Below are positions 28,720 through 47,285 of a stretch of 64,000 bases of DNA, piece after piece (position 1 is the stretch's first letter; the number at the start of each line of letters is the position of its first letter). The notes beneath the pieces were generated by a model, which had not been told where the DNA came from, searched no databases, and saw only the letters and a program-made list of their open reading frames with translations. Location of the stretch: the IMG/VR virus record IMGVR_UViG_3300017987_000006, positions 96,001-160,000 of that record; one strand, given 5' to 3'. The position numbers and the translations under genes are program-made. The DNA comes from a virus.

Positions 28720-29597
28720 ATGCATACAAGACCCTGGCCTTTGTAGACGAGCTGGAGAAGCTGGCCCTCGCACCTTCGTTGGTCCAGCGGGCCCTACGGT
28801 CTGGTGTCGGCCGTGCTGTCGTCAGCAACGTCCCGAAGGTCTGGGGCTCTGGTTTCGGGCGCGCGGCAGCGGGAGCCCTGCCTGGGGCGGCCATAGGTGC
28901 TGTGGCAGACCCGCAGGACAGTGTTCGGGGGGCAGTCCTGGGCGGTCTTGCTGGAGCTGGAGCTGGCTATGCATCACCCCTGCTCACGGCTGGGGGTCGC
29001 GCTCGTGCTAGAGAGGCCCTGAAGCAGTGGGGCAGGGAACAGAAGCACTCCTTCGTTGGTGGTGAACTCCCCATCAAAAAAAGCATGAAGCCGGAAGAAA
29101 TCGCGAAACTTCGATCTGCGGAGAAGGCCGGGCTGACTAGTCTGCCGGGCGTAGTCAAGGGGATGGCAAAGAGGCCGCTACAGACGATGAAGGCTGGTTG
29201 GCAACACGCTGGAGGTCTGGGCAAGGCTATGATCGTGGGGGATGTGGCGCTGCAGGCTCCGGGCCTTGTAGACCCAACCACCCCAGAAGGAACGGGGGAG
29301 AAGGCCCTGCGGATGCTCGGAGGGACAGCAGGATTTCTTGCCGGAGGAAAGCTGCCGATGTTGGCTAGCCTGGCCCCCATGGCCGGGCTGGCGTACCTCG
29401 GCGGGAAGGCTGGTCGCGGGATCGATGTGTTGACAGGCGAGAGAGCAAAGAAAAAGAAGATGATGACTGCGGCGCAGCAGGCCGAAGCCGACAAGTTTTT
29501 GCGGGTCAGGCCTACTACTGCTCTCGCTCAGCGGGAGGCGCGGAAACTCGTCCCGGCCGGGTACATCCCGGCTGGGTACGGACCGGGGGTTGTCTGA
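28716..29597 (+). CDS. Gly/Ala-rich basic protein with ELEK leader (glycine-zipper-like)
   Basis: MNAYKTLAFVDELEKLA; GxxxG repeats. Confidence 0.65.
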   Translation: MNAYKTLAFVDELEKLALAPSLVQRALRSGVGRAVVSNVPKVWGSGFGRAAAGALPGAAIGAVADPQDSVRGAVLGGLAGAGAGYASPLLTAGGRARAREALKQWGREQKHSFVGGELPIKKSMKPEEIAKLRSAEKAGLTSLPGVVKGMAKRPLQTMKAGWQHAGGLGKAMIVGDVALQAPGLVDPTTPEGTGEKALRMLGGTAGFLAGGKLPMLASLAPMAGLAYLGGKAGRGIDVLTGERAKKKKMMTAAQQAEADKFLRVRPTTALAQREARKLVPAGYIPAGYGPGVV

Positions 29598-30772
29598 TGG
29601 ACCTCGGAACAGTTGGCGCTACACGCTTCTCCAGATCTCGCGGCAGGATAACTGGATCTGGAACCAGCGGCATCAGCTATCCGAGCCCGTTCTTCGATAT
29701 CGGGCATACGTACCTGCCCACCACCGTCAAGCAGATGTTCAGGTGGTGTCGGTACTACTTTTTAGTTCACCCGCTGATCAACTCGATCATCTTCAAGATG
29801 GCCCAGTATCCGATCACGGACCTGGTCTATCACACCGACGATCCGCACTTGAAGGACCGGTGGAGGGAGATCTTCGAGGACGTTCTCAAGTACCGCTGCT
29901 TCCAGATGGAGATCGGTCTCGACTTCAACACGTACGGCAACGGGTTTGTCTCAATGTTCTTTCCGTTCCGGAAGATCATTGAGTGCACGAACTGTCATAA
30001 CAGCGAGGCCGCAAAGGACGCCAGGTACTACTTCCGCAACTTCCAGTTCTATTGGAAGTGCCCACGCTGTGGGCACCACGGGCCGACCAAGGTCTATGAT
30101 CGGTACATCAAGTCGACGCGGGGAATCCGCCTCTTGAGGTGGAACCCGGAGGACATCGACGTTCGATACAACGATCTGAACGGCCAGTACACCTACTTCT
30201 ACGACATTCCCGTGAAGTTGAAGAACGACATCATCATGGGGCGGAGACATATCGTGGAGGAGGTGCCGCAGGTCTTCATCGAAGCGCTTCGACGGAAGAA
30301 GGCTATCGTCTTCAACAACGACAACATCTACCACTTCCGACGCCCGACACTGGCTGGCAAAGATCGAGGGTGGGGAATCCCATTGATCTTGCCGGTGCTG
30401 AAGGACGCCTTCTACCTGCAAATACTGAAAAAATCTCAAGAATGTGTGTCTTTAACCAGCGAGCTGGAGACATCGGGCGGGCTGGTGCAGGCGGACGATG
30501 TTAGGGTTGGGGACCTCGTGAGAACTCATACGGGCGCGTGGAAATCCGTGGAGAAGAAGTGGTATCGGGACGCCCGAGAAGAAGAGGTCGGCAGGAAGAT
30601 CACTCTCACGAGTCTTCGTGGGTATCCGACAACGTATTCTCCACAACATCCAATCTTTACGATCCGCAGAAACGGGATTAATAGACGGACGGACACGAGA
30701 GAAGCTCCACGCTCCTCAATAATTTTGAGCAGGCCGCATCTTTATGAGGAGGTCCTTTGTCCGGCAGAGTAG
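29597..30772 (+). CDS. Portal protein, N-part (extein with Zn ribbon + intein N-region), ends at in-frame TAG
   Basis: YPSPFFD, HPLINSII, RGWGIPLILPVLK portal-like motifs; CTNC...CPRCG insertion; intein starts SQE|CVSL. Confidence 0.7.
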   Translation: MDLGTVGATRFSRSRGRITGSGTSGISYPSPFFDIGHTYLPTTVKQMFRWCRYYFLVHPLINSIIFKMAQYPITDLVYHTDDPHLKDRWREIFEDVLKYRCFQMEIGLDFNTYGNGFVSMFFPFRKIIECTNCHNSEAAKDARYYFRNFQFYWKCPRCGHHGPTKVYDRYIKSTRGIRLLRWNPEDIDVRYNDLNGQYTYFYDIPVKLKNDIIMGRRHIVEEVPQVFIEALRRKKAIVFNNDNIYHFRRPTLAGKDRGWGIPLILPVLKDAFYLQILKKSQECVSLTSELETSGGLVQADDVRVGDLVRTHTGAWKSVEKKWYRDAREEEVGRKITLTSLRGYPTTYSPQHPIFTIRRNGINRRTDTREAPRSSIILSRPHLYEEVLCPAE

Positions 30773-31723
30773 TTGGGTATCGGGGAGTACGTCCTCTATC
30801 CGCGGTATCTCCCCGTGCAGGAGACAACCTACGTTGACGTTGCTTTAAGGACCGGGTTGGTGAGTACTGACGGGTTCGTCTATAGTGGGTGCTGTGAGGA
30901 CACCGCTGTCGCTTTCGAATCTTTGGAGCGGGGAGAAAGGGTACCACACGACAACCCGGGGCGAGTAGCGAAGAGGGCGATTCGTGATGGGCGCACTCCG
31001 AAGAGAATGCCCAGGATCATTCCCATGACGGACGACCTGGCTTACATCCTCGGTTGGTATGCTGGTGATGGGAGCTGCAATGCCAGAAGTGTATTTTTCA
31101 GCCTTGGGAAAGGGGATGATTCCCTTTCTCTCATCGGGGCTATTCAGCGAGAGTTCGGGGTTACACCCACCGTGGAGGAGGGAAAATCTGTGAACACGGT
31201 GGTACTGTCCGACGTCATCGTACGTCATTTGATCAAGGGCCTAGTACCCGGGACAGCTCGACATAAAAAAGCCCCAGAAGAGGTGCTCAACGCCCCAAAC
31301 AGCATGAAACTTTCATACCTGCGTGGGTTGTGGGAGGCAGACGGGTCAGCAGGCGAAAAGAGTATATGCATCACCTCCACCAGTCGAAACCAAGCATATG
31401 ACGTATATAGGATCGCGATCCATGTTGGCTGTATCGCTTCCATCGGAAAATCGAAGCCGAGCGTTAGCGTAATTGATGGAAGAGAGGTACGAAGCAAAGG
31501 ATCGTACAATGTGACCGTATGCAATGCGTCGGCCGATCGTCTGCGTTCTTTGTGGGAGTGCGGGGAGGGCCCTGATATTACATCAGGGAAAAGCGGGTTC
31601 TTTTGGGGTGACTACTTTGCCACCAGGATCTGCGCAATTGAAGAGGTTGAGGAGGCACAGTATATAGACTTCAAGGTAGCCGATGACACCACGTTCTGTG
31701 TCCCGGGTACGGCCACAAAGAAT
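30443..31723 (+). mobile_element. LAGLIDADG intein in the portal, interrupted by TAG at 30770-30772
   Basis: CVSLTSEL..., TYSPQHPIF, YILGWYAGDGS, YLRGLWEADGS, YIDFKV...TATKN|S; rejoined extein ILKKSQE-SIALDHIVP. Confidence 0.85.
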
Positions 31724-32911
31724 AGCATTGCGCTCGATCATATCGTCCCACTTCGCGTGATGTTCCCGCAGACCGGCTCGGCAACCGCCGACCCATTCTC
31801 GATGGTCAACCTCTCGGAATGGAAAGATCAAATCGCTGAGGAGATTCAGCGTTGGAGGCTCGATAATAACTACATTCCGATCCTCCCGCTCCCCATCGGT
31901 AATCAGACCATCGGAGGCGATGGTCGGGCGTTGTTGCTCGGGCAAGAGATCAGAGTGTGGTCGGAGCAGATCGTCACCGGGCTGGGGATCCCAATCGAGC
32001 TCATCTTCGGCGGCCTGTCCTACAGCGGTAGCAATGTATCGCTGCGTATGCTCGAGAACATGTTCATCAACTATATGCACGATCATATCGACCTGACGAA
32101 GTGGGTGGTGCGTAAGATCTCTTCTTACATGGACTGGCCATCGATAACGATCAAGTTCAAGCCGTTCAAGATGGCGGACGACTTGCAGCGTAAGGCGTTC
32201 AACCTGCAGCTCTCCCAGGTCGGAAAAATCTCTGACGATTCCCTGCTGTCTGATGCAGATTTCGATCCGGACCACGAGGACAAACAGATCGAGAACGAGA
32301 CCAACCGGCGAGCGGAGGCACAGAAAAAGGCCAGGCTGGCGCAGGCCGAGATCGAAGGCGCGAGTCAAATGATCATGATGCGCTATCAGATGAAGGCGCA
32401 GCAAGAACAGATGCAGATGCAGATGCAGGGAGCTCCGGCTCCCGGGGAGCCGGGAGCAGAGGCGCACGGCGTCGCGGAGGAGAGTGGGATGCAGCCGCAG
32501 CAGCCCCCGCCAGAGCAAGGTGGACCTGGGACTGCTCCGCTTCCTCAACAGATGATGGCTGCGCAGGCGCTGCCACCAATTCCGGCCCAGGCCCGCGCCG
32601 AGCTACCGCCAGCAATGTCGGAGATGGAGTCACCGCTGAACATGGCGCAGCAAGTGGGTCAGGTTAATCAAGACCAGGCTGGCCAGATGAACGTGGATCT
32701 CATAGCGCAAGCTCAGATGGTGGCGGGGCAGCTGATGCGGATGGACGAGAACAGCCGGACGATGGTGCTGATGAACTTGAGACAGCAGTCGCCTGAGTTC
32801 TACCAGGTCGTGTTGGGGCTAATGCAGAGCATGGTGGCCGGCGGCCCCACCGCAGAACCGCCGCCCGAGCAGCAGGCTCCACAGCGGGGCCGCGAGGCCG
32901 CCGCAGTCTAG
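30773..32911 (+). CDS. Portal protein, C-part (intein endonuclease and C-region + portal C-extein with Q/P-rich tail)
   Basis: Same frame as 29597..30772; extein SIALDHIVPLRVMFP...GLGIPIELIFGGLSYSG. Confidence 0.7.
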   Translation: MGIGEYVLYPRYLPVQETTYVDVALRTGLVSTDGFVYSGCCEDTAVAFESLERGERVPHDNPGRVAKRAIRDGRTPKRMPRIIPMTDDLAYILGWYAGDGSCNARSVFFSLGKGDDSLSLIGAIQREFGVTPTVEEGKSVNTVVLSDVIVRHLIKGLVPGTARHKKAPEEVLNAPNSMKLSYLRGLWEADGSAGEKSICITSTSRNQAYDVYRIAIHVGCIASIGKSKPSVSVIDGREVRSKGSYNVTVCNASADRLRSLWECGEGPDITSGKSGFFWGDYFATRICAIEEVEEAQYIDFKVADDTTFCVPGTATKNSIALDHIVPLRVMFPQTGSATADPFSMVNLSEWKDQIAEEIQRWRLDNNYIPILPLPIGNQTIGGDGRALLLGQEIRVWSEQIVTGLGIPIELIFGGLSYSGSNVSLRMLENMFINYMHDHIDLTKWVVRKISSYMDWPSITIKFKPFKMADDLQRKAFNLQLSQVGKISDDSLLSDADFDPDHEDKQIENETNRRAEAQKKARLAQAEIEGASQMIMMRYQMKAQQEQMQMQMQGAPAPGEPGAEAHGVAEESGMQPQQPPPEQGGPGTAPLPQQMMAAQALPPIPAQARAELPPAMSEMESPLNMAQQVGQVNQDQAGQMNVDLIAQAQMVAGQLMRMDENSRTMVLMNLRQQSPEFYQVVLGLMQSMVAGGPTAEPPPEQQAPQRGREAAAV

Positions 32912-33724: not shown

Positions 33725-33740
33725 TTCTTATATCGACGAA
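33725..33740 (-). promoter_or_regulatory. ATAAG-type putative phage promoter
   Basis: Minus strand TCGTCGATATAAGAA, 40 nt before the 33687 start. Confidence 0.4.
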
Positions 33741-33750: not shown

Positions 33751-33779
33751 TTGACTCGCAAAATGTGGGCTGCTATGAT
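33751..33779 (+). promoter_or_regulatory. Strong sigma70-like promoter of the RNAP gene
   Basis: TTGACT-17-TATGAT with extended -10 TG. Confidence 0.7.
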
Positions 33780-33806: not shown

Positions 33807-36800
33807 ATGGCGAGGCTCGCACCTGAAGAGGGGTTCGCCCTCCTCAAAGACCAGGTAGCGGAGACTGTCAAGGAGATCTTCCCGATCAAGGGAACCAAAC
33901 ACACTCTCCGCCTGGACGACATCGAAGTCAAAGACAACAAGGACATCGAGGACATCCGCTCCCAAAAGAAGGCGCGGCTAGAAGGCCGCACCTGGTCCGT
34001 TCCGGTCAACGGTAAGTTGTCTCTCGTTGATAACAAGACCGGGAAGGTGGTCGATCGGCGGACTCAGAGGATCATGAGCTTGCCCAAGGTGACCAACAGG
34101 CACTCCTACATCGTGGATGGTCAGGAGTACCAGATGGACAACCAGTGGCAGCTCAAGCCCGGCGTCTATTCCAGGCGTGATGAGAGGGGCGAGCTGGAGT
34201 CCATGTTCAACCTGAAGGGTAAGCACGCCTTCAAGGTGAAGTTCGACCCAAAGACAGCCAAGTTCTCCATGCTCAAGGGGACCACCAACGTTCCGCTCTA
34301 CCCCATTATGCGCGAGCTCGGGGTGACGGACGAGGACCTCGAAAAGTCGTGGGGCAAGCAGATCTTGCAGTCCAACAAGGTCAAGTCTTCAGACGCTGCG
34401 CTCGAGCGGTTCTACAAAGCCGTAAACAGAGAAAAGCCCTCGGACCCGCGCCAGGCCAGGGAGTTTTTGCAGGAGTTCATGGACGGGGCGAAGATGGACC
34501 CCGACGTCGCCCGCATCACGTTGGGCGATAAGCATGACACTGTCGGCGGAAAGACGATCCAGCTCGCCTCGCAGAAGCTGTTGGGCATCAGCCGCGGTGA
34601 CGTGAAACCAGATGCACGCGACAGCCTGATGTTCAAGAACTTCCGCTCGACAGAGGACTTCGCACGCGAAGCGCTTCAGACCAGGAGTGGAGAGATCTTA
34701 CGGCGCGTCGGAAATAACCTGGACCGGAAAGGAAAGATCCAGGAGATCGTCGGGCCGGACATTTTCAACCGTCCCATCAATGCGCTGTTCAAGAAGGCCA
34801 ACCTGTCCAACCGACCAGACCAGACCAACCCGCTAGAAATGATCTCCGGAGCGATGAAGACGACGATCATGGGTGAGGGTGGTATCACGAGCGAGCATAA
34901 GATCACTGAGGATGCAAAGCTCATCGATCCTTCCCACCTCGGTTTTCTCGATCCGATCCATACTCCTGAATCGGCGCGAACAGGCGTGTCGTTGCATCTT
35001 CCTCTTGGGGCGCGAAAGAAGGGGAACAAGCTCGTCACCAAGATGTACAACATCAAGACGGGTAAGATGGAGGATGTCGATCCCGAGACGGCGTACAACG
35101 CCAATATCGTCTTGCCAGATCAGGTGAAGTGGAGGGATGGAAAGCCCGTCCCAATCGGCAAGACCGTCAAGTTCAGCGGCCAGGAAAACGAAATCACAAC
35201 GGGCAGTATGAAGGGGGCGGACTACGTAATGCCGGCCCCGGCACAGCTCTTCTCTGTCGCCTCCAATATGATCCCCTTCCTTCAGAACGACTCCGGGAAC
35301 AGGGCAACGTACGCCAGCAAGCAGATGGAGCAGGCCATCCCACTGAAGCATCGAGAGTCTCCGTTGGTGCAGACCGTCATCGCCGCAGGGAAGAAAGAGA
35401 CCAGCCTCAACAAGTTCATGGGGAAGATCAATTCCCATACGACTCCAATTGATGGAGAGGTTGTGCAGGTCAAAAGCGATAGCGTGGTGATCAAGGGAGC
35501 GGACGGGAAGCGCAAGGAGGTTCAGACTTACGACCACTTCCCGTTGAATGACGACAAGAGCTTCTTGCACTCGACGCCGCTGGTGAAGGTTGGCGATAAG
35601 GTCAAGAAGGGGCAGACCGTAGCCGACACGAATTTTACCAAAAAGGGAGATCTGGCACTCGGATCGAACTTGACGACGGCGTATGTCCCGTTCCACGGGT
35701 ACAACTACGAAGATGGTGTGGTGATCTCCGAGTCCGGGGCGAAGCAGCTCACGAGCGAGCACATGCACCGTAAGGGCCTGGACGTCGGCAAGGAGCACAC
35801 GCTCAGCAAGGACGCGTTCCTCAAGCACTACGGGATGACGCTCAAAAAAGACCAAGCTGACAAGCTGGACGACGCGGGCGTGATCAAAAAGGGACAGAGG
35901 GTTGGTCCGGGAGACACCCTGGTAGCGGCCTTGCGGCATCGGGAAGAGACGGACGAGGACAAGATCCGTAGGCGGATGCACAAGTCGTTGGTCAAACCAT
36001 ACGACAACGTCTCCGTCACCTGGGACAACGATCATCCAGGCGTCGTGACGAACGTGGTGAAGCGAGGCAAACGCGCAGAGGTTCATGTCAGGACTGAGGA
36101 GCCGGCGGAAATCGGCGATAAGATCAGCGGCAGGCATGGGGACAAGGGCATTATCACCCGCATCGTCCCAGATCACGAGATGCCCACAACCAAGGACGGG
36201 AAGCGTGTTCATCTGGCGCTGAACCCGGCGGGGGTTGCTGGACGTATCAATTTGGGACAGGTCCTTGAGGCAGCGGCCGGGAAGATCGCCGAGAAGACTG
36301 GAAAGCCATACCGCGTGCAGAATTTTGACGGCACTGAGGATATGACCGAGCGTGTCCAGAAAGAGCTCAAAGAGCACGGTCTGTCCGACAAGGAAGAGCT
36401 CATCGACCCCAAGACCGGCAAGACGATGGGGAGGGCTTTGGTGGGGCCGCGGTACATGCACAAGCTTAGACACCAGGTCGGAAAGAAGCTCGTAGCCCGT
36501 GCTGGAGGACCGGACTACGCCTACGATATGAATCGCATTCCGAAGCGTGGCGGTCCGCACGGGGCGCAGGCGTTGGACTCTTTGGGGGTCTACGCGATGT
36601 TGGCTTCCGGAGCCAAGGCGAATCTTCGTGAGATGCAGACTTACAAGAGCAACGCGGAGAACAACGATGAGCTGTGGTCTGCGGTTCAGACTGGAGATCC
36701 ACTCCCAGCTCCCAGGCCCTCATTCGCCTACAACAAGTTCGTCGGCATGCTCAAGACTATCGGCGTCAACACGGTCAAGCAAGGCAACACACTGAACCTG

Positions 36801-39800
36801 ATGCCGCTGACGGACAAGCAAGTCAGGGAGATGAGTGAGGGTAGGACGATCAAGGACGCCGGGAAGATGGTCCTCGGGAAGAACCTCAAAGAGGAGAAGG
36901 GAGGCATCTTCGATAAGGACGCGACGGGCGGGCTGAACGGGACCAAGTGGTCCCATATCGAGCTGCCCGAGCGGATGCCGAATCCGATCTTCGAGAAGGC
37001 CATTGTCAGCCTCACCGGCATCAAGAAAAAAGATCTCGGCGCGCTGATGGACGGCAGCAAGGCCCTCAACACCAAGACGGGTCAGTTCACGTCGCCGGAG
37101 GAAGGGGTCTCGGCGGGAAAGGCTGTCGAGCACCTGCTGAAAAAGATCGATGTGGACGCGGAGCTCGCCTCCGCACAAAAGCAGATCCAAAACCCAAGCC
37201 TGAAAGGAGACAGGCTGGACAAGGTTAACAAGAAGATCAAATATCTGCGCTCGTTGAAGAAGCTGGGAATGACGCCGACGGAGGCGTACATGACCAAGAC
37301 CGTGCCTGTCCTCCCGCCATCCATGCGTCCTCTGGCCGTGCGCCCCAACGGAGAGCTCGGTGTCGAAGATCTGAATGGGATGTACAAAGGTCTTGGCATC
37401 GCCATCAACAAGATGAAGGATGCCAGCCCGCTGCAGCTACCGGAAAAGATCAACAAGAGACGAGCGGCGATCTATGATGCGATGAAGGGTCTGGCCGGGA
37501 CTGGGGGGTACCTCAACCGAGACTACCGCGGGGTACTCGACATCATCGCCGGGAAGAAAGCGCAGGGTCCGGAGGGAAAGCCTGGGAGTCCGCGGGAGAG
37601 TTACTTCCAGTCCAAGTTGATCAAACGGAAGCAAGATCTGTCGATGCGGTCCACCATCATCCCCGAGCCTGAGCTCGGCCTGGATGAGGTTGGGATCCCT
37701 CGCAAGGCTGCGATGGAAATGTACAAGCCGTTCATCGTCAGGGAGTTGGGGAACTTTGCTGGGCTGAGCCCACTGGCGGCGCAGCAAGCCATCAAGGACA
37801 GGGACCCGCTGGCCGCGCGTGCGCTGGAACGTGTGGTCAAAGAACGTCCGGTGATGTTGAAGCGCGATCCGGTCCTCCATAAGTACGGAGTACAAGCATT
37901 CAAGCCGGTGCTCACTAGCGGCAAGGCGATCAAGATCCATCCCCTGGTGACTGGCGGATTCAACGCCGACTTTGACGGCAATTGTGTTGACGGCTGCTCC
38001 GAATTGGTGATAAGGTGTTCTGGTCTTGCGAGGGAGCACTTTATGAAATTCGGAGCAGAGTCTTTGACAGTGGCGAGAGATCCTGCGCTTGGGATCAATG
38101 CCGACCGTATTATGATCAAGAACTTTCCACGGGAGGAAGAACCACACAGGTACGATCGAAATGGCGCTGCCGTCTACCGTGTCCCGGACGGATTGCAGGT
38201 CCTTTCGTACGATCACTTCTTGGGTGAGTCGACGTTCGAGGACGTCACTGAGCTAACCATCGAGGAGGACTGTCCTGTAGTCGAAGTGCGTTATGCGTCT
38301 GGACACAAGGTTACTGCTTCTACTAATGAGTCTTTGTGTGTCTATGACCACGAGACGGGAATGCTGCGCAAGGCACGGCCGGAGGAATCTGTAGGGGCAC
38401 TAAGCCCTGTCATCTCGTCTCCTCCCGGTGATAAGCACGACAAGTTTTTCGGGTGGATGGTAGGCGCTTTTGTGTCTGATGGATTCTTCACCAACGGGCG
38501 CATCGGAATCACCAAAGTCGATGACGAGTTCCGCTCAACGTTTGGGGATGCTCTAAGAACGTTCGGCGATGTGTACGCAAGCAACACATACCGCAGAGAA
38601 AAAAAGGCACCGACCGATTTCTCAGAGCATAGCGTCAAAGATCACTACACCGTGGGGGGAGAGATCAAAGACCTGTTCATGAGGTGCTACACCGTAGAGT
38701 ACAGATCTTATCTACGGGATGGAACGCGGAGCGGCGAATTAAAGAATAAGCGGGCAGCACTATACAAGCGCCTACCACAGGACATCGGCGACTATTCCAG
38801 AGATGCCTTGCTCGGTGTATTGTCCGGCTTGTTGGATGGGGATGGGACACTTTCCTGGAGCAGGTCTAAAACGAAGGAGCAGTTCCTGGCTTCGTATTCC
38901 ACCAGCTCCCACCAGCTGATGGAAGACGTCCGATATTTGTGTCACTTGCTAAATGTTCGCTGCTCTGTGTCACCAGTCTACCCCCGTGCGAATAGGGCGC
39001 AGAGGCACATCAACTATGTCATCTCATTCAGCACCGTAGATATTGAGAAGCTGGCTGGGGAGTTGCGCCTCGCTGCTTACTCGGATACGTTGATCAAACT
39101 GGCAGCGAACCCGCTGTCCAAGGATGATCGGGACGTGGTTCCTGTGCCGATATCGATCTTACGCGGCATGATCAGTAAGAAGAGTGTGGTGTTCAAAAAA
39201 GACCCAAAGCTCTGTAGATCGCTGGCTACGTTGGCGTCAAAAAATAAGAGACGTCCGAGGGTCTCCAGAGACACGGCGCTCAGAATGGTCCCCTATCTGA
39301 ATTTGGAAAACGCACTGGAAGCATATTGGTCATCCTTAGTGAAATCTGATGTCCGATGGTCTTACGTGAAAGAAGTCGAAGATAAGGGAAAGACGACCGT
39401 ATACGATTTGGTCGTGCCTACTACCAAGATCTTCGCGGTCAATGGTGGGCTGGTGGTGTGGGACACCATGGCGGCATTCGTTCCTCTGACCTCCGAGGCG
39501 GTGGACGAGGCGCGGAAGATGTATCCATCCAGGAACCTTTTCAGTCCCGCTACCGGAAGCTTGATGTACAAGCCGACGAAGGAGAGTCAACTTGGGCTCT
39601 ACAAGCTGACCCAGCAGGGCAAGCGGACGGACAAGGCGTTCAAGACCGTGGCCGAAGCTGCGAGGGCTGCCTCAGCAGGATCCGTGGGGATGACTGATGT
39701 GGTCAAGATTGGCGGACAGCAGACCACCATTGGGCGCGCTCTGGTAGCCAACGCGCTACCTCAATCCATGCGCGGCGGTGTGATGAGCGGGAAGACCCCA

Positions 39801-41507
39801 CTGGACGGGAAGGGGCAGACGGAGCTGCTGACTCGCTTGGCGAAAGATCACAAGGGGTCATTCGGCGAAGTCGTCAACAAGATCAAAGACCTCGGAAACA
39901 GCTACGCCACGCAGACCGCTTCTTCGCTTGGCCTCGAAGATCTCCGCGCCGACAAGAAGCTGCGGGACCGCATCCTAAAGTCCGCGGACGCCAAGGTGAA
40001 GGAGATCATGTCGGGGAAGGGGACGAAGGAGCAAAAGCAGAAGAAGGCGATCCAGATCTACGACAAAGCATCGGAGGCAATGATCAAGGCTGCCGAAATC
40101 GACCACGCCAAAAACCCTACTGAGCTATTTCAAATGTTGAAGGCGGGGATCAAACCGCAGATGGGCGCGTACCGTCAAATCACCATGGCTCCGATGCTGA
40201 TGATGAACGCCAAGGGCAAGGTCATTCCAGATCCAATCCGCAAGTCCTACTCTGAGGGCATCGATGTGGGCGACTACTGGACGCAGATGTCCGGGGCGCG
40301 CAAGGGCGTTGTACAGAAGGTCCAGTCTGTCCAGGAGCCTGGGTACTTTACCAAGCAGGTAATCAACTCGGTGATGAACAACGCCATCGGGGAGCAGGAC
40401 TGCGGGACCAAGAAGGGGATCACACTCCCTATAGAAGAGCGCGACGTGCTAGATCGATACCTGGCAAAGGACACCAAGTCAGGACGCAAGACCTTCAAGG
40501 CAGGGACCTTGATCACTCCCGGTGTTCGCGACAGTCTCAGGAACAACCGCGTCGGCCGTGTCGTCGTTCGTTCTCCGCTCCGATGTGAGCACAGCGGAAC
40601 GGGGATTTGTGCTCGGTGTTATGGTAACGATGAGGATGGGGCTCCCCCACCCACCGGCCGGAACGTCGGCATCATCAGCGCCCAAGCCATCGGCGAGCGG
40701 GCAACTCAGCTCGCCATGCGGACCTTCCACGAAGGCGGGGTGGCCCCTGTCGGCGCGGCGGGGAAGCAGAAGGCCGCACTGACGGACGAGTTCAACCGGG
40801 TGCAGCAGCTCGTTCAGATGCACCAGAACATCCCTGGGTCTGCTCCTCTCAGCTCAGTCAACGGGAGGATAACCAAGATCCAAAAAGATCCTGCTGGCGG
40901 GAGCAACGTGTTCATCTCGGCGGGAGATAAAGAAGTACGCCACTATGTCCCACAAAACCGGGGCGAGCCGCTGACGTTTGTGGGGGACAGGGCCAGAAAG
41001 CTGACGCGTGGTATGCAGATCCAAAAGGGTGCTCCCCTCTCGGCCGGTCCGATAAACCCGAACGAGCTGTTGCCCCTGGCGGGAGTGAACAAGGTGCAGG
41101 GATACCTGGCCGGACAGATGTACGATCTGTACAAGCAGCAGGGGATACGTCGGAGGAACATCGAGACCGTCGTCAAGAGTATGACGAACCTGACCAAGGT
41201 TTCTGACCCGGGCGGACAGTCGGACTTCATTCGAGGCGACTTCGCCCCTACGTCCAAGCTCCAAGCGCTCAACAAGAAGCTGGTCGCGCAGGGAAAGAAG
41301 CCTATCGCACACAGGCCGGTGTTGAAGGGGGTCAAAACGTTGCCGCTCGACATGCAGACAGACTGGATGGCAAGATTGAACCATGAGCAGCTTGCTGGTA
41401 CAGTCGTCGATGCGGCGAACCAAGGATGGAGCAGCAATATCCACGGAGAGCATCCGATCCCAGCGCTTGCCTACGCAGCTGAATTCGGAAAGAAGAAACC
41501 ATACTAG
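33807..41507 (+). CDS. Single-chain two-barrel RNA polymerase (beta-beta' fusion) with intein
   Basis: Beta motifs DQTNPL, DPIHTPE, IPFLQND..NRA, GYNYEDG, GDKISGRHGDKG, LNPAGVAGRINLGQ; beta' motifs VPVLPP, RDPVLH, NADFDG, GARKG, CEH...CARCYG, AQAIGERATQLAMRTFH; start MARL at 33807 (RBS AGGAG). Confidence 0.95.
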   Translation: MARLAPEEGFALLKDQVAETVKEIFPIKGTKHTLRLDDIEVKDNKDIEDIRSQKKARLEGRTWSVPVNGKLSLVDNKTGKVVDRRTQRIMSLPKVTNRHSYIVDGQEYQMDNQWQLKPGVYSRRDERGELESMFNLKGKHAFKVKFDPKTAKFSMLKGTTNVPLYPIMRELGVTDEDLEKSWGKQILQSNKVKSSDAALERFYKAVNREKPSDPRQAREFLQEFMDGAKMDPDVARITLGDKHDTVGGKTIQLASQKLLGISRGDVKPDARDSLMFKNFRSTEDFAREALQTRSGEILRRVGNNLDRKGKIQEIVGPDIFNRPINALFKKANLSNRPDQTNPLEMISGAMKTTIMGEGGITSEHKITEDAKLIDPSHLGFLDPIHTPESARTGVSLHLPLGARKKGNKLVTKMYNIKTGKMEDVDPETAYNANIVLPDQVKWRDGKPVPIGKTVKFSGQENEITTGSMKGADYVMPAPAQLFSVASNMIPFLQNDSGNRATYASKQMEQAIPLKHRESPLVQTVIAAGKKETSLNKFMGKINSHTTPIDGEVVQVKSDSVVIKGADGKRKEVQTYDHFPLNDDKSFLHSTPLVKVGDKVKKGQTVADTNFTKKGDLALGSNLTTAYVPFHGYNYEDGVVISESGAKQLTSEHMHRKGLDVGKEHTLSKDAFLKHYGMTLKKDQADKLDDAGVIKKGQRVGPGDTLVAALRHREETDEDKIRRRMHKSLVKPYDNVSVTWDNDHPGVVTNVVKRGKRAEVHVRTEEPAEIGDKISGRHGDKGIITRIVPDHEMPTTKDGKRVHLALNPAGVAGRINLGQVLEAAAGKIAEKTGKPYRVQNFDGTEDMTERVQKELKEHGLSDKEELIDPKTGKTMGRALVGPRYMHKLRHQVGKKLVARAGGPDYAYDMNRIPKRGGPHGAQALDSLGVYAMLASGAKANLREMQTYKSNAENNDELWSAVQTGDPLPAPRPSFAYNKFVGMLKTIGVNTVKQGNTLNLMPLTDKQVREMSEGRTIKDAGKMVLGKNLKEEKGGIFDKDATGGLNGTKWSHIELPERMPNPIFEKAIVSLTGIKKKDLGALMDGSKALNTKTGQFTSPEEGVSAGKAVEHLLKKIDVDAELASAQKQIQNPSLKGDRLDKVNKKIKYLRSLKKLGMTPTEAYMTKTVPVLPPSMRPLAVRPNGELGVEDLNGMYKGLGIAINKMKDASPLQLPEKINKRRAAIYDAMKGLAGTGGYLNRDYRGVLDIIAGKKAQGPEGKPGSPRESYFQSKLIKRKQDLSMRSTIIPEPELGLDEVGIPRKAAMEMYKPFIVRELGNFAGLSPLAAQQAIKDRDPLAARALERVVKERPVMLKRDPVLHKYGVQAFKPVLTSGKAIKIHPLVTGGFNADFDGNCVDGCSELVIRCSGLAREHFMKFGAESLTVARDPALGINADRIMIKNFPREEEPHRYDRNGAAVYRVPDGLQVLSYDHFLGESTFEDVTELTIEEDCPVVEVRYASGHKVTASTNESLCVYDHETGMLRKARPEESVGALSPVISSPPGDKHDKFFGWMVGAFVSDGFFTNGRIGITKVDDEFRSTFGDALRTFGDVYASNTYRREKKAPTDFSEHSVKDHYTVGGEIKDLFMRCYTVEYRSYLRDGTRSGELKNKRAALYKRLPQDIGDYSRDALLGVLSGLLDGDGTLSWSRSKTKEQFLASYSTSSHQLMEDVRYLCHLLNVRCSVSPVYPRANRAQRHINYVISFSTVDIEKLAGELRLAAYSDTLIKLAANPLSKDDRDVVPVPISILRGMISKKSVVFKKDPKLCRSLATLASKNKRRPRVSRDTALRMVPYLNLENALEAYWSSLVKSDVRWSYVKEVEDKGKTTVYDLVVPTTKIFAVNGGLVVWDTMAAFVPLTSEAVDEARKMYPSRNLFSPATGSLMYKPTKESQLGLYKLTQQGKRTDKAFKTVAEAARAASAGSVGMTDVVKIGGQQTTIGRALVANALPQSMRGGVMSGKTPLDGKGQTELLTRLAKDHKGSFGEVVNKIKDLGNSYATQTASSLGLEDLRADKKLRDRILKSADAKVKEIMSGKGTKEQKQKKAIQIYDKASEAMIKAAEIDHAKNPTELFQMLKAGIKPQMGAYRQITMAPMLMMNAKGKVIPDPIRKSYSEGIDVGDYWTQMSGARKGVVQKVQSVQEPGYFTKQVINSVMNNAIGEQDCGTKKGITLPIEERDVLDRYLAKDTKSGRKTFKAGTLITPGVRDSLRNNRVGRVVVRSPLRCEHSGTGICARCYGNDEDGAPPPTGRNVGIISAQAIGERATQLAMRTFHEGGVAPVGAAGKQKAALTDEFNRVQQLVQMHQNIPGSAPLSSVNGRITKIQKDPAGGSNVFISAGDKEVRHYVPQNRGEPLTFVGDRARKLTRGMQIQKGAPLSAGPINPNELLPLAGVNKVQGYLAGQMYDLYKQQGIRRRNIETVVKSMTNLTKVSDPGGQSDFIRGDFAPTSKLQALNKKLVAQGKKPIAHRPVLKGVKTLPLDMQTDWMARLNHEQLAGTVVDAANQGWSSNIHGEHPIPALAYAAEFGKKKPY
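37983..39464 (+). mobile_element. LAGLIDADG intein (494 aa) in the RNAP catalytic motif, atypical C-terminal Asp
   Basis: Starts CVDG; VTASTNESL; FFGWMVGAFVSDG; VLSGLLDGDG; VYDLVV...VNGGLVVWD|T. Confidence 0.85.
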
Positions 41508-41516
41508 GAGACCGAG

Positions 41517-41897
41517 ATGAATCAAGAACACATGACCAAGATGGCGACGGCGTTCCTCAGCGAGCTGTCAGAAATCGAGAAGCAGGGCTTTGCCCCGCTC
41601 CGCTTCCTGGCCGGTGGTGTGCGCCGACTTGGGGTCGGCATGGCCAACGTTGGCCGGCAGGGTGGATTCCTCGGTGCCATTGGAGGAGCAGGGGCTCGCC
41701 GCGCTGGGGGGGTAAGCAGACACATCAAGCAGATCTATCGATCTGGCGCAAAGCCCGTCGCAGTGAAAGGCGTCGAAGGCGGTGGCAATATGTTCGGCGG
41801 GCTGAAGGCCCTCGCTCGATCACCATACGGCCAGATGGCAGCAGTCCCGGCGTTGGCCGCGGGCGGGCTGTACGCCGGCAAGAAGCTGTTGGGGTGA
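41517..41897 (+). CDS. Gly-rich basic protein with ELEK-type leader
   Basis: TAFLSELSEIEKQG followed by an amphipathic Gly/Arg-rich sequence. Confidence 0.6.
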   Translation: MNQEHMTKMATAFLSELSEIEKQGFAPLRFLAGGVRRLGVGMANVGRQGGFLGAIGGAGARRAGGVSRHIKQIYRSGAKPVAVKGVEGGGNMFGGLKALARSPYGQMAAVPALAAGGLYAGKKLLG

Positions 41898-41900
41898 TTT

Positions 41901-43127
41901 GTGGCGGAGGTTCTCGGTCCCCCCCGCATGGTGAGTACTGACAACTCACCGACCACGGCAGAACACGGACCCGCGTGGATCCATAAAGCCGCCGTCACCA
42001 ATGTCAACCTACGTAACTGGACTGTCGATGTACTGACCGAGCAGGACAACGAATACCACACCGAACTGCAGGTGGCCTCTCCGTACTTCCACACAGAGAA
42101 CGGGGAGGGTATCTATGCAATGCCCGAGGTCGGATCGATTTGTCTACTGGCAAAGCTGTCTGACGAAGCCACCCCATTCATCCTTGCGTTTTTGGGATCG
42201 TTTGAACTCGAGGGAGCACAACTCGACAATCTCACAGACCGGGCTGGGGAAGCGGCGAACGCTGAGGAGGAGACGGGGACGACGCCGACCACTTCAATGT
42301 CGACGGGGGCCGGGCAGACGACGAACTCAGCTTCGGCCAGAGGAGGCAGGCCGTTTCTGAATCCCGGGGACATCATGCTTCGTACCCGGGACAAAAACTT
42401 CATCGTGCTGAAACGCGGTGGAGTAATCCAGATTGGCTCTACCCCGACATGTCAGACGGTCTACGTCCCCATCCTCAACTGCCTCCGCCAGTTTTGTGAA
42501 AACTACGAGATGATAACGCCCGGCGGGCTAACCACCTGGGCCGTTCAACGCCAGCAGAATGACCCGGCCGGTCTCGCTCCTATCTTGTATCGAATGACGA
42601 TCAGAGACAAGGCTCAGAATGATAAGGCTGACGTCCAGATTAAGGTGGGTCACATCTCGGATACGGTGCGATACGAGATGGAGATCGCTCCGCAGGGAAT
42701 CCAGGTCAATGATGGTGCTGTTACTGGATCTAAGCTGAAGATGACCATTGATGTGAACGGGAATCAGACGTTCACGATGGAGGGAAGCCTCAGCTATACC
42801 ATCCAAGGCGGCAGGAGCTACACAGTCCAAGGTACGGATACACTCAGCGTGACAGGCGCTAGATCGGTCGAGGCGAACAGCATTCAGGAACGATCAAGGA
42901 CTACACACACGCTGAATGCGCTATCGAGCTTGGAGGACATAACGGGAACAAAGACGATTAAGGCGGCCATGGTCATGCTCGGAAAAGCCCCGTCGGAACC
43001 AGCTGTGCTGGGCGTCAAACTGTTGACGTGGCTGGCAAGCCATACGCATCCTGCACCAAGGGCCCCATCTGAGCAGGCACCACAACTGGCCACAATACTC
43101 TCTTCTAAGGTAGTGTTGACACCATGA
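41901..43127 (+). CDS. Baseplate spike/hub (gpV/gp5-like) protein
   Basis: OB-fold-like N-terminus (EGIYAMPEVG), beta-strand repeats, C-terminal SHTHP HxH tip motif. Confidence 0.7.
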   Translation: MAEVLGPPRMVSTDNSPTTAEHGPAWIHKAAVTNVNLRNWTVDVLTEQDNEYHTELQVASPYFHTENGEGIYAMPEVGSICLLAKLSDEATPFILAFLGSFELEGAQLDNLTDRAGEAANAEEETGTTPTTSMSTGAGQTTNSASARGGRPFLNPGDIMLRTRDKNFIVLKRGGVIQIGSTPTCQTVYVPILNCLRQFCENYEMITPGGLTTWAVQRQQNDPAGLAPILYRMTIRDKAQNDKADVQIKVGHISDTVRYEMEIAPQGIQVNDGAVTGSKLKMTIDVNGNQTFTMEGSLSYTIQGGRSYTVQGTDTLSVTGARSVEANSIQERSRTTHTLNALSSLEDITGTKTIKAAMVMLGKAPSEPAVLGVKLLTWLASHTHPAPRAPSEQAPQLATILSSKVVLTP

Positions 43128-43483
43128 AGGTATCACAGCAGGGCCTGGAGGACGCGCTAAAGAAGTATCTCCAGGAGCTCGAGCCGGTGGCCAAGAGCGT
43201 GGCCACGAAGAACGAGGTGAAGCAAGAGCCTCGGCAGGGAGGTGGGACGGATGTATCTGTCGTGCAGACCAAGGGTGACGTGTATATGGACAGGCAGAAC
43301 GCCACGGCACTGGCAAAATCTATTGCCAAATCGGTGCATGAACATGTAGTAGGATACATGGACGACCCAATGGTGACGAAGCTCAACGAGCTGATAGCGC
43401 AGTACAATCAGCTCAGATCTGACTTCGTCACGGGCGGGGGATCGACGACATCAACAGCCGTAGACCAGATTCCCACGAGCTGA
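43124..43483 (+). CDS. Hypothetical protein
   Basis: 119 aa, coupled to the spike gene. Confidence 0.55.
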   Translation: MKVSQQGLEDALKKYLQELEPVAKSVATKNEVKQEPRQGGGTDVSVVQTKGDVYMDRQNATALAKSIAKSVHEHVVGYMDDPMVTKLNELIAQYNQLRSDFVTGGGSTTSTAVDQIPTS

Positions 43484-43485
43484 TC

Positions 43486-43514
43486 GTGACAAACCGGCGC
43501 GGAAGTTGTAGACT
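43486..43514 (+). promoter_or_regulatory. Sigma70-like promoter
   Basis: GTGACA-17-TAGACT upstream of 43536. Confidence 0.45.
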
Positions 43515-43535
43515 CGCGCCTAGGAGATAGGAACA

Positions 43536-45542
43536 ATGGAACTTTTCCTGGATGATCCAAATGGCCTACCCAAGTTTGCTGCGGCCTTTACCAGGCTGTC
43601 CGAGAACCCGGACGAGTGGCAGGCGGAAATCGTCAACGAGCTGTTTCGTCAGGCCCCGTACGCCGGTGAGTTCACGGCCAAGGTCATCATGAACGAACTG
43701 GACCCGGAACGTAGGTATGGGATGGGAGCCGTCGAGCTGAAGACCCGCCAGGCCGTGGGCCCCCAGGACCACTCTGTCCCGGAGTATGTCCAGGGCGTGA
43801 ACAAGGTGTTGATCCCGGTTGTTATCAAGGAGGGCAAACTTTCCCCTCTGGACGTCTTCCTGAGCAGCGGCAAAGCTATGCCACTGACCGAGCACCGCCT
43901 CCGCAAGGCCATGTTCCGGCCACAGCTGTTCGAGGCCGTGGCCAAACGGCCAGGCGACCAGGACATGATGAACACGCTGTTCCCACCGTACCGTTCGGGG
44001 GGATTCGGCCTGGGCGGGAACAGCCGCGTGGGCACGATGGAGCAGGGCAAGACCGCCTCGGCAAACATCCCGCTCGTGGACGCAATCCACAACACCATCA
44101 AGGAGGCGGACGTAAAGCGTGTGGAAGATCAACTCAACGCTGACCCTACGCTGCAAGCCGCCATCCTCAGAAACGAGGCGACCGCGGGCTTCATGGCAAA
44201 GCTGGCGCGACCACGTAAAGCTCTGTCGGACAGGCAGCTGACCAAGATAGCGATGGGGCTCGTTCGGCCGAAGGTGATCCAGGTATCCAAGTCGCGCGGC
44301 GGGTTCATGATTAAGACCGCCGCGCCAGACACTCTCGCCCCAGAGGAAAACGAGGTCACCCGTCCGGATGCGGAGTCCATCGTCGGCAAGGACGTCGTCA
44401 AGAACGTTGAGCGGGACGGGACCGTTACTATCTCCACCGACCCGGTCGTCCGCGACTCGTTGTCCGATGCTAAGATCAAGGTCGTCGATGAGTTCGGCGA
44501 GTATAAGGTCAGGACCAAGGACGGCAAGGAGCTCGTGGGGTGGGTCTTTCCACGCTGCGTCGATCTGGGGGGCGTCAACCTGGCGCTTGCCATCTTCTCC
44601 AACGGGTCCCAGTCAGGTGTGCAGGAGAACATCGCCGCCAGCCCGGTAGGCAAGGGCACAAATCTGATCGATGGCGAGCCGGAGGGATTCGGTTGTTTCT
44701 ACCTGGCACGCCAGGGTGGGGCCGTGGCCATCGTCCCGATGGACATCAAGGGGCACGGCGTTGGGCCGGATGGAACAGACGAGTTTCAGGTTTCCACGAT
44801 GTTGGGCGACGCTGCTCGCATCCGCAAGGTGGAAGGGCTGAACAAGGTCGCAGAGATCGGAGACGGGGTCTACGGCATTCCCCAAGACTGCGGGTGGCTG
44901 CCACTCAGGAACATGACCAAGCTGGCCGATAGTGCCGACGAGTTCACCAAGACGGCGCAGGTGCGCGGCTCGCTAGATCGGATCGAGGTGATGTACGATC
45001 AGTCTGGCGTTTACAGCATGCGTGGCAAGCCGATGGAGAAGTTGGCCAGCGCTGGGGTCCGACACCAGTACGTCGACCAAGATCAGACCGTGTTTAACAT
45101 GGCACTTCTGGGGGTCCATCCATCCACAGCAAAAGAAAAGCTCGCGGAGGCCCGCAAGGCTTCGCGATGGTGTTCAATCGAAGGAGTGAGGCCGGTCACT
45201 CTAGCATCTGAGAAGTACGCTGCGGCGAAGGCGGAGGCCCGCACGTTCATCGAGAACATGCCTCGTATCAAGTCCCTGCTACTGAAGGAAGCAGCGGCCT
45301 TGGACGATCCCATGTCGGTAGACAAAGTGCTGTCGGTAGGGTTCCTGAACCCAGAGAACATCAGCACCTTCGTATCCTACCTGCCCGAGTTCGAGGACGT
45401 ACTCAGCAAGCTCAGCGAGCTGTTGATCGCTTCAAGGCTCGGTCTGTCGACAGTGGACACTGGGGCTCTCGAGCGCGTCGTGCAGCACTTGGATAAGGTG
45501 ACTGGCGGGCTCAGAGAGTTAAACCAGCATCCACAGGCATGA
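43536..45542 (+). CDS. Large head-associated protein with repeated KxA motifs
   Basis: KFA, KTA, KIA, KTA, KTA, KLA, KEA at domain-like boundaries. Confidence 0.65.
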   Translation: MELFLDDPNGLPKFAAAFTRLSENPDEWQAEIVNELFRQAPYAGEFTAKVIMNELDPERRYGMGAVELKTRQAVGPQDHSVPEYVQGVNKVLIPVVIKEGKLSPLDVFLSSGKAMPLTEHRLRKAMFRPQLFEAVAKRPGDQDMMNTLFPPYRSGGFGLGGNSRVGTMEQGKTASANIPLVDAIHNTIKEADVKRVEDQLNADPTLQAAILRNEATAGFMAKLARPRKALSDRQLTKIAMGLVRPKVIQVSKSRGGFMIKTAAPDTLAPEENEVTRPDAESIVGKDVVKNVERDGTVTISTDPVVRDSLSDAKIKVVDEFGEYKVRTKDGKELVGWVFPRCVDLGGVNLALAIFSNGSQSGVQENIAASPVGKGTNLIDGEPEGFGCFYLARQGGAVAIVPMDIKGHGVGPDGTDEFQVSTMLGDAARIRKVEGLNKVAEIGDGVYGIPQDCGWLPLRNMTKLADSADEFTKTAQVRGSLDRIEVMYDQSGVYSMRGKPMEKLASAGVRHQYVDQDQTVFNMALLGVHPSTAKEKLAEARKASRWCSIEGVRPVTLASEKYAAAKAEARTFIENMPRIKSLLLKEAAALDDPMSVDKVLSVGFLNPENISTFVSYLPEFEDVLSKLSELLIASRLGLSTVDTGALERVVQHLDKVTGGLRELNQHPQA

Positions 45543-46414
45543 TTGAAGAGTACCGTAGCCCCAGCGAGTTCTTCATCCGCTTCTTGTTCTCGGCACAAGA
45601 AGATCCGGACGTGGATGAAGTGCGGGCCAAGTTGATCAACTTGGGTCTGGACTGTGTCGATATATCCTACCTCGAGTCTCTGTCACAGACGATGGAGCCC
45701 AGGCCCGACGATTATCAGCCGGACAATCCACGCCACCGACCGACCAGGGAGTATTTGAAGAAGCATAAGATCTACGACATGTGGAATCCAACGCCGGCCG
45801 TCAAGGAGGCTCAGCTCATCCTCCTCGACGTTTTTTTACGTGAGAAGCTCGAGCCGATGCTTCTGTCCAGCATGCCTCATCACCAGATAGCCAACCGGTT
45901 GCGGAAGTACACCGCCATTGCATTGTCCGAACAGGGTGTCCTGGCCTACGCACACTACTTTTGGAACCGCTCATTGATGCCGCAGTCTCTTTGGGTTGAC
46001 TACCTAAAGCGCCGCTTTGGGAACTCCTACGTTCAAGGCGTGCAGACCCCCCGCGACTTGGCCTCAAAACACATGCCGTGGGTGGTGAACATCTCTGGTC
46101 CGTATGGTACGTTCAACACGGCCGAAGCATCGGCCAGGATCGGACAGATCGCATTCAAGCACGCCCTGGAGCTGGAGCACGAGAAGGCCACGGTCGAGAC
46201 GACGATGGCGCTCAAAAACTGTATGATCACTATCGAGAAAGCAGACGTAATCATGCGCCGCAGCGAGGTTGCACTGCGCGACGTGTTGCGGCAGTTCCAG
46301 CGGTTCCGTGTGAAGCTGGCTGACGCGAAGATCGTACCCATTCAACAGCTGACGGATGGGAACTACAGTAAGTCCGGAGAGGGTACGGACACGGACAACG
46401 AGGAAGACTTCTGA
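45539..46414 (+). CDS. Hypothetical protein (possible terminase small subunit)
   Basis: Helical protein upstream of TerL; function inferred from position only. Confidence 0.5.
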   Translation: MIEEYRSPSEFFIRFLFSAQEDPDVDEVRAKLINLGLDCVDISYLESLSQTMEPRPDDYQPDNPRHRPTREYLKKHKIYDMWNPTPAVKEAQLILLDVFLREKLEPMLLSSMPHHQIANRLRKYTAIALSEQGVLAYAHYFWNRSLMPQSLWVDYLKRRFGNSYVQGVQTPRDLASKHMPWVVNISGPYGTFNTAEASARIGQIAFKHALELEHEKATVETTMALKNCMITIEKADVIMRRSEVALRDVLRQFQRFRVKLADAKIVPIQQLTDGNYSKSGEGTDTDNEEDF

Positions 46415-46427
46415 TCAGGAGGCTAAG

Positions 46428-46940: not shown

Positions 46941-46941
46941 A

Positions 46942-47285
46942 GGGGGGTGCGGCCCGCAGGCCGCCCACCATTGATCGACAAAGACGCACCGAGGCACAAC
47001 ATCCGCCTCGAATGGATGCGCGCTTTGCATCCTTCAGTGCGTCCTTGCCGAGCAGGCATGTAGGCACTAAGTTGATCCAGCAAGGAGAAAACACCGTTGG
47101 TGTAAAACGCTCGGACGCGTTGGTACAGTCGTCCGTAGGACCGGTGCCCAATGAGCGAGGCGAACGACTCGGATGATGAACGTCGCTCGAACTTCAACTA
47201 GAGACGAACGTCTCGCTACGGCTGGTGAGGCCGCCTCCCTCTGTAGGGCCGGCAGGGAGGTGGAAACGCTAAGCGTGTTTCCATC
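46942..47285 (-). ncRNA. Candidate structured non-coding RNA 2 (unknown family)
   Basis: Intergenic; eight or more perfect 5-7 bp stems including a 3-way junction; ATAAG motif upstream; 3' cUGCGg hairpin. Confidence 0.45.

Follow-up and report, generated by a model that had tools for sequence, protein, structure and literature searches.

A large phage encodes a single-chain bacterial-type RNA polymerase with an intein in its catalytic loop, alongside a sigma-70-family factor

We analyzed a 64,000-nucleotide stretch of viral DNA (positions 96001-160000 of the 178,259-bp IMG/VR phage record IMGVR_UViG_3300017987_000006; hereafter, the window), which carries a gene for a multisubunit-type RNA polymerase (RNAP) whose beta and beta' parts are fused in one chain and whose catalytic loop holds an intein. 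The record has direct terminal repeats and a completeness rating of 100%. Elsewhere it encodes a sigma-70-family factor that co-occurs with the polymerase across a clade of large phages, while genes for alpha and omega are absent from the genome. On balance, we favor the explanation that the phage owns a single-chain bacterial-type core that works with the phage sigma factor and is probably packaged in the virion and injected. An original prediction, made from the letters of the window alone, had described a compact single-chain beta-beta' enzyme inside a virion morphogenesis block. That observation is confirmed, and its interpretation as a virion-packaged, alpha-independent RNAP is supported in part.

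The polymerase open reading frame (ORF) most likely starts at ATG 33807, which has AGGAG 8 nt before it; a GTG at 33765 is another possible start, and the stop codon lies at 41505-41507. In the translation of 2566 amino acids (aa), Pfam detected the beta domains Rpb2_3 and Rpb2_6 (residues 338-902, with Rpb2_6 scoring 209 bits at residues 549-902) followed by the beta' domains Rpb1_2, Rpb1_3, and Rpb1_5, which is the beta-then-beta' order that had been predicted. A LAGLIDADG_3 match and a sub-threshold Intein_splicing match are located between Rpb1_2 and Rpb1_3. The beta double-psi barrel motif GRHG[ND]KG (Pfam RNA_pol_Rpb2_6) is present, with GDKISGRHGDKG readable in the translation. Residues 56-989 align to residues 68-1056 of the 1104-residue cyanobacterial beta (8gzg_C), an end point that agrees with the predicted beta/beta' junction near position 36770, and the last 680 residues align to residues 485-1198 of Thermus aquaticus (Taq) beta'. 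Alignment to the Taq and Salmonella beta' proteins showed that the bridge helix is conserved, as are the helices of the clamp and of the trigger loop. In beta, mapping to Salmonella RpoB showed a diverged flap-tip helix. The beta' N-terminal zinc-binding domain is deleted, with approximately 30 residues gone where Escherichia coli has C70, C72, C85, and C88. A map of cysteines found none in residues 1-1392, and the mature protein has only four, and these match the ligand positions of the second beta' zinc site (ORF residues 2199, 2260, 2268, and 2271).

Removal of the intein leaves 2072 aa, in line with the approximately 2070 aa anticipated. The accompanying claim that the enzyme is much shorter than its cellular counterparts holds against E. 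coli and has to be scaled down otherwise: the smallest bacterial beta and beta' pairs sampled, which come from the Candidate Phyla Radiation (CPR), total approximately 2270-2320 aa as stop-to-stop frames, so the phage enzyme falls about 10% under the cellular minimum, not the 25% that the E. coli comparison implies. Judged by its alignments, the polymerase is a trimmed bacterial conserved core without lineage-specific inserts. Pairwise mapping to Salmonella RpoB detected substitutions in the rifampicin pocket (Q513N, H526G, R529K, S531T, and I572S in E. coli numbering) at the positions where bacterial resistance mutations are most frequent; because the pocket is altered, the enzyme is predicted to be insensitive to the drug. 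No second multisubunit RNAP locus was found in the complete genome. A search of the genome for a T7-like RNAP (PF00940) also gave no match, though the control for that search was silent as well.

In a search of 5.8 billion proteins, fused beta-beta' proteins made up more than 120 clusters, encoded on contigs of up to 165-209 kb. Members of this family are 2045-2078 aa long when free of inteins; those that hold between one and three inteins can be as long as 3966 aa. Among isolated phages, the closest enzymes are those of Salmonella phage Arash and Vibrio phages D69, D148, and D181, at approximately 32-34% BLASTP identity (30% by tblastn over the joined pieces), and bacterial RpoB/RpoC proteins are 25-31% identical to the phage enzyme. 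With such identities and the very long branch described below, the original portrayal of the enzyme as close to bacterial RpoB/C was overstated. Precomputed Pfam lists place Peptidase_M23 (PF01551) within the polymerase ORFs P0100, P0104, P0105, P0107, and P0112, where it may represent an additional inserted domain. In two related IMG/VR phages, the polymerase gene contains in-frame TGA codons, one in G029:C1:88703-91093 and two in G037:C1:46923-49307, which could reflect recoding, introns, or errors.

Trees of concatenated beta and beta' were built with FastTree (56 rows, 2170 columns) and with IQ-TREE under the LG+C20+F+G4 model with posterior mean site frequencies (PMSF; 43 rows, 1936 columns). 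They included 29-40 bacteria from CPR, Bacillota, Pseudomonadota, Bacteroidota, Cyanobacteriota, and Planctomycetota, a sample that the search pattern G[YF]NADFDG had skewed to CPR and Bacillota. In both trees, the fused family, Arash, and D69 fall on one side of a branch with a support of 100. This branch, which separates the phage clade from bacteria, measures 1.45 (FastTree) to 2.2 (IQ-TREE C20) substitutions per site; the trees are unrooted, and with a branch of this length the attachment point among bacteria is not trustworthy. The phage RNAP clade is not nested in any sampled host lineage, and the clustering within one such lineage, for which the original prediction had proposed a phylogenetic check, was not seen.

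Two database hits labeled as bacterial, at 44% and 37% identity, proved to be phage-like contigs of 162 kb and 204 kb in metagenome-assembled genomes (MAGs). The 162-kb contig (L019, CBDHHL010000046.1) was binned in a Leptolyngbyaceae MAG and the 204-kb contig (L020, DAOQAF010000001.1) in a Bacteroidales MAG. Both MAGs are GTDB species representatives, and each has ordinary rpoB and rpoC genes on other contigs. Their binning may be a host hint or mere contamination. Among the truly bacterial sequences, one locus (L033, CAZSLA010000031.1) encodes a beta-beta' fusion as one ORF. This locus and the MAGs labeled 'uncultured Gammaproteobacteria' (L022, L023, L035, and L055) branch among CPR/Patescibacteria in the RpoBC tree, and their taxon labels therefore look wrong.

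Neither an alpha nor a sigma gene lies within the window, as had been noted. For alpha (PF01000 and PF01193) and omega (PF01192), the absence extends to the complete genome, which gave no match at E<=10 in a search whose controls were positive in 14 of 14 genomes. For sigma it does not: a sigma-70-family factor of 263 aa is encoded outside the window, at genome positions 62322-63113, in a long structural-gene operon. This protein matches Sigma70_r3 above the Pfam cut-off and regions 2 and 4 weakly, and a profile that combined it with five orthologues matched SigA/RpoD regions 2-4 with E = 1.8e-18. Orthologues are present in all large relatives examined, among them G001 (61% identity), L019 and L020 (on the same contig as the polymerase), Arash (Gp10), and D69. 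All 12 relatives with complete or near-complete genomes (completeness of 85% or more where rated) encode both sigma and polymerase. In the reverse test, all six IMG/VR records that were found via sigma and are at least 90% complete carry the polymerase, and the sigma-retrieved records without it are fragments, 30-77% complete. Sigma was not found in nine fragmentary relative contigs, a negative made uninformative by their completeness of 5-40%. Given that a conserved sigma-70-family factor is encoded in the genome, the enzyme is most likely sigma-dependent and served by the phage sigma, not a host sigma. Complex prediction for the beta' clamp (residues 1100-1392) and sigma region 2 (residues 30-140) returned a score of 0.17 and a mark of 0.32, which counts neither way.

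A 449-aa Sigma70_r4 protein (L136:8461-9810; genome positions 8461-9810) was considered as a second sigma factor and rejected, as it has regions 3.2-4 only and is not conserved in relatives. Its residues 197-326 are close to RpoD regions 3.2-4 (1e-23), and the remainder matches nothing. The protein may act on host transcription, either as a region-4 decoy or by binding -35 elements.

The polymerase intein is inserted after the third metal-ligand position of the beta' NADFDGD catalytic loop. Its LAGLIDADG_3 match scores 33 bits, and its Intein_splicing match scores 24.6 bits versus a cut-off of 35.8. It has Cys1, Thr+1, and the LAGLIDADG motif, and its C-terminal end is Trp-Asp, not the canonical class 1 His-Asn. 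The Mg-binding motif reads NADFDG-N before the intein, and canonical splicing (Cys1 to terminal Asp, with Thr+1) leaves NADFDGN. All intein-free relatives, by comparison, keep NADFDGD, with T, S, A, Q, or K in the first position after it and M in the second; none has Asn in place of the final Asp. The junction N/C...[WY]D/T (slashes mark the splice points) is common to at least 14 alleles that are 38-66% identical; its recurrence in alleles so divergent means that it is no sequencing slip. A Trp-Asp or Tyr-Asp end is present in every typable allele of this intein type. Five further alleles of the same type have D/S or D/C...WD/T(C), a second type at the same site has D/[QDA]...SN/T, and a third type ends in ...RN/T. 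Across the polymerase family (proteins P0004-P0119), at least three intein types occupy the NADFDGD/T site, the commonest being Asn(-1)/Cys1...Trp-Asp or Tyr-Asp/Thr+1. As far as the sequences can tell, the DFDGN site may be functional, the Asn may undergo conversion, or splicing may follow an unusual chemistry.

Under the explanation that we favor, the gene would supply the catalytic core as one chain, beta then beta', and splicing of the LAGLIDADG intein out of the Mg-binding loop would yield the 2072-aa enzyme. The covalent beta-beta' link would probably take the place of alpha as an assembly scaffold. Promoters would most likely be recognized by the 263-aa phage sigma through its regions 2, 3, and 4, this factor being co-inherited with the polymerase across the whole phage clade. 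The core and sigma genes both lie in structural-gene operons. By analogy with Arash, the virion would probably carry their products inside its capsid and inject them along with the DNA, which would make the first phage genes readable without the host polymerase.

Packaging of the polymerase is fairly probable in view of its gene position and the proteome of Arash, a relative approximately 32% identical. As the original prediction stated, the gene lies between those for the portal and the baseplate spike; it does so in every relative, down to approximately 32% identity, and the order portal, polymerase, spike, terminase is shared by 11 IMG/VR loci, with relatives whose proteins are 44-74% identical. 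Among the proteins of the Arash virion preparation, the polymerase protein Gp206 gave 3516 spectra, the highest number of all, and outscored the major capsid protein; its partner Gp216 gave 1210 spectra, and the sigma factor Gp10 gave 467 at 100% coverage (PMC10585845).

Several points weigh against a packaged holoenzyme, and the intein junction is the chief argument against a straightforwardly active enzyme: NADFDGN is without the third Mg-binding Asp of intein-free relatives, so the activity of the mature enzyme is not assured. The co-occurrence of sigma and core within one phage lineage may be plain vertical inheritance, and the phage core could recruit host alpha. The Arash preparation was purified by sucrose gradient only, 116 of 272 proteins were found in it, including ribonucleotide reductases and RNA ligases, and carry-over was allowed for by the authors themselves (PMC10585845). 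The polymerase N-terminus shows no capsid-targeting leader and no extension relative to bacterial beta. Finally, the gene is preceded by a near-consensus sigma-70-type promoter, which would also fit expression by the host polymerase and a non-virion role. In its most demanding form, our explanation calls for a self-contained minimal machine of one-chain core and sigma that operates without alpha or omega, is packaged and injected, and has either a working DFDGN site or an undescribed kind of splicing that restores the Asp. We consider this full combination possible and rather doubtful.

Among the alternatives, the one that survives best, and that we judge unlikely while taking it seriously, is a non-virion phage polymerase. 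The host polymerase would transcribe its gene in the course of infection; together with the phage sigma, the enzyme would then read middle or late genes in the manner of T7 RNAP or the phiKZ non-virion enzyme, being unpackaged or packaged incidentally. It draws on the TG-extended TTGACT-17-TATGAT site upstream of the gene. The -10 hexamer of this site ends 27 nt upstream of the polymerase ATG, and six relatives (L008-L013) have a -35 element, TTGAC[TA] or TTGCCA, in the corresponding position; by its sequence, the site may be used by either the host or the phage holoenzyme. The N4 virion RNAP gene is likewise a late gene transcribed by the host polymerase, and a sigma-70-type site is therefore no argument against packaging. 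A non-virion role is equally compatible with the low specificity of the Arash proteome and with the lack of a visible targeting peptide, but it leaves the constant place of the gene between portal and central spike, and the top score of its Arash counterpart, unaccounted for.

It is improbable, in our assessment, that the phage sigma redirects the host core, as T4 gp55, SPO1 gp28, and phiEco32 gp36 do, and that the fused core initiates with another factor or with none. The factor is an ordinary sigma-70-family protein, sigma-encoding large phages use the host core (PMC7598289, PMC7824862), and the divergence of the flap-tip helix of the phage core would fit as well. Against this, sigma and the phage core stay together in all 12 genomes while the core diverges to approximately 32% identity, both proteins were found in the Arash virion preparation, and conservation extends to the beta' clamp helices, where sigma chiefly docks.

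We give very little weight to the idea that the polymerase copy studied here is catalytically dead or crippled, either by the Asn that remains after splicing or by failure of a non-canonical intein to splice. Such a defect would agree with the junction sequence, with the occurrence of Asp alone in intein-free relatives, and with an Intein_splicing score below the cut-off. However, the alleles that share the junction have intact ORFs of about 2550 aa or more on otherwise normal phage contigs, and this is the sole polymerase gene of a complete genome with terminal repeats. Recent capture of a host rpoB-rpoC fusion, or misassembly of bacterial DNA into a phage contig, has a negligible chance of being right: rpoBC fusions do exist in bacteria, as the single ORF of L033 illustrates, but the low identity to any bacterium, the position of the clade outside all sampled phyla, the conserved phage synteny, and the normal rpoB and rpoC elsewhere in MAGs with a phage-type copy all contradict it.

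The coordinates of the polymerase, its parts, its neighbors, and the candidate promoters are collected in Table 1.

Table 1. Features of the polymerase locus and copies of a promoter-like motif (window coordinates unless stated otherwise; slashes mark splice points).
Feature	Position	Strand	Description	Evidence
Whole RNAP gene	33807..41507	+	2566-aa precursor, 2072-aa mature protein	ORF and translation; Pfam beta/beta' domains; sole multisubunit RNAP locus in genome
Beta module, approximately residues 1-988	33807..36770	+	Minimal bacterial beta, no lineage-specific inserts	Alignments to cyanobacterial beta and Salmonella RpoB
Beta' N-terminal part	36771..37982	+	Ends in NADFDG-N	Residues 1063-1392 align to beta' 142-464; Cys map
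Intein, residues 1393-1886	37983..39464	+	494 aa, with LAGLIDADG homing endonuclease	Junctions GN/C...VVWD/T
Beta' C-terminal part	39465..41507	+	Bridge helix, insert-free trigger loop, second Zn site	Alignment; Cys positions
Candidate sigma-70-type promoter of polymerase gene	33751..33779	+	TTGACT, 17 nt, TATGAT, upstream TG	10/12 matches; best score in 20 kb
Portal gene	29597..32911	+	Has its own LAGLIDADG intein	BLASTP to Arash Gp204 and D69 portal homologue; translation; Pfam
Small gene between portal and polymerase	33687-33556	-	Acidic 43-aa ORF	
Small gene between portal and polymerase	33450-32908	-	Cys-rich 180-aa ORF, CxxC pairs	
Baseplate central spike, gp5/gpV-like	41901..43127	+		Profile versus T4 gp5 C-terminal beta-helix, 1.7e-7; weak Phage_base_V and Gp5_C
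TCGATATAAG, the TCGGTATAAG copy heading the two small genes	33727..33736	-		Conserved in relatives
TCGGTATAAG copies, the four of the genome list below that lie in the window	12325, 25821, 33736, 47301	-		
TCGGTATAAG copies, genome coordinates	6906; 50527, 108325, 121821, 129736, 143301, 168930, 169048, 170093, 173090, 175010	+ (6906), - (all others)		

The portal intein has the junctions KKSQE/CVSLTSEL...ATKN/SIALDH and contains an in-frame TAG at 30770-30772, approximately 108 residues past Cys1, which is directly followed by TTG in the same frame. The TAG could mark a naturally split intein (an N-intein, then an endonuclease and C-intein, with trans-splicing), a read-through site, or a nonsense variant. 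Both small minus-strand genes between portal and polymerase are conserved in relatives L008-L013 and are headed by a TATAAG motif. Downstream of the polymerase, a 126-aa gene precedes the central spike gene, after which come four more conserved genes and the large terminase gene (47316-49196). Within the spike family, 8 of 10 members have a weak Phage_base_V match, and weak Phage_base_V/Gp5_C matches occur in 7-8 of 10; an AlphaFold model of the spike protein has a mean predicted local distance difference test (pLDDT) value of 47. Searches of PHROGs and Pfam with the polymerase neighbors and the genes around sigma gave almost no matches, and the ESM Atlas held nothing usable for a 668-aa gene at 43536.

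The promoter-like motif TCGGTATAAG has 11 copies in the genome, all of them intergenic. Most copies have a Shine-Dalgarno-like sequence and a start codon approximately 25-55 nt downstream on the same strand, and one lies approximately 7 nt before an antisense RNA beside the terminase. The motif heads opposite-strand "islands" of small genes, the block at 104740-121774, which we take to be replication genes, and the block at 40612-50214. No -35 element is evident for it, and in the window alone its four copies are not above chance (1.5 expected; 9 of 100 shuffles). These sites are hypothetical candidates for early promoters of an injected holoenzyme. Reading the motif in the other orientation, as CTTATACCGA, a promoter common to the polymerase, terminase, and head operons, was rejected because all 11 copies in the TCGGTATAAG orientation have a same-strand gene or RNA downstream, and three copies have no nearby plus-strand gene. 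K-mer searches of the early and minus-strand blocks for further promoter classes returned nothing convincing.

If a packaged and injected holoenzyme is indeed what these genes encode, a large and widespread group of 165-210 kb phages would be independent of the host RNAP from the first minute of infection. Should the enzyme prove active in the absence of alpha and omega, it would offer a compact and possibly rifampicin-insensitive system in which to study sigma-dependent initiation; it would bear on why alpha and omega are needed and could be used as an orthogonal transcription module. Whether the polymerase can dispense with the third catalytic Asp can be tested directly at the intein junction, and the deep separate branch is relevant to the question of viral versus cellular polymerase origins.

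The systems most like this one are those of Arash (Gp206 and Gp216, with sigma Gp10; PMC10585845), D69, D148, and D181, which belong to the same deep clade and have the RNAP directly after the portal. They share bacterial-type beta/beta' motifs, an orthologous sigma-70-family factor, and genomes of 180-187 kb. In Arash and D69, however, the enzyme consists of two proteins, one with beta and the beta' N-part (approximately 1525 aa) and one with the beta' C-part (approximately 606 aa), split approximately 105 aa after DYDGD, whereas the enzyme described here is a single, intein-bearing chain. In the Arash paper, the RNAP proteins appear in a proteome table only, and no function was assayed (PMC10585845). 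The RNAPs of phiKZ and AR9 are likewise phage double-psi beta-barrel enzymes without alpha and omega, one set of which is packaged and injected (PMC7598289, PMC13282480), but they comprise 4-5 polypeptides, each genome encodes two sets, and a sigma-70-family factor is lacking, in contrast to the one fused core, one locus, and sigma described here. They are also far more diverged: phage-annotated split beta/beta' genes such as those of YerA41, RP13, and the RHph_TM phages are 24-28% identical over 17-39% of the query.

Bacterial rpoB-rpoC fusions (Helicobacter, Wolbachia, and L033) also have beta followed by beta', but they branch with their own phyla, unlike the phage-borne 2072-aa chain. Such fusion enzymes are approximately 2900 aa long, are cellular, and use alpha2, omega, and a host sigma. 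The N4 virion RNAP and crAss-like gp66 resemble the phage core in being single, very large polypeptides that are believed to be injected and to carry out early transcription. The N4 enzyme differs in its T7-like single-subunit fold, gp66 is a two-barrel enzyme that carries a DxDxD motif and has diverged strongly, and neither uses a sigma-70-family factor. Reviews up to 2026 hold that large phages with diverged, multiply split RNAPs have no sigma and that sigma-bearing ones have no RNAP (PMC7598289, PMC7824862, PMC13282480). The phage clade is an exception to both rules, having a multisubunit RNAP and a sigma factor together. In the literature searched, this arrangement is undescribed save for the Arash proteome table, and the 2072-aa chain with a sigma of approximately 240-260 aa is the simplest form of a cellular-type RNAP yet seen.

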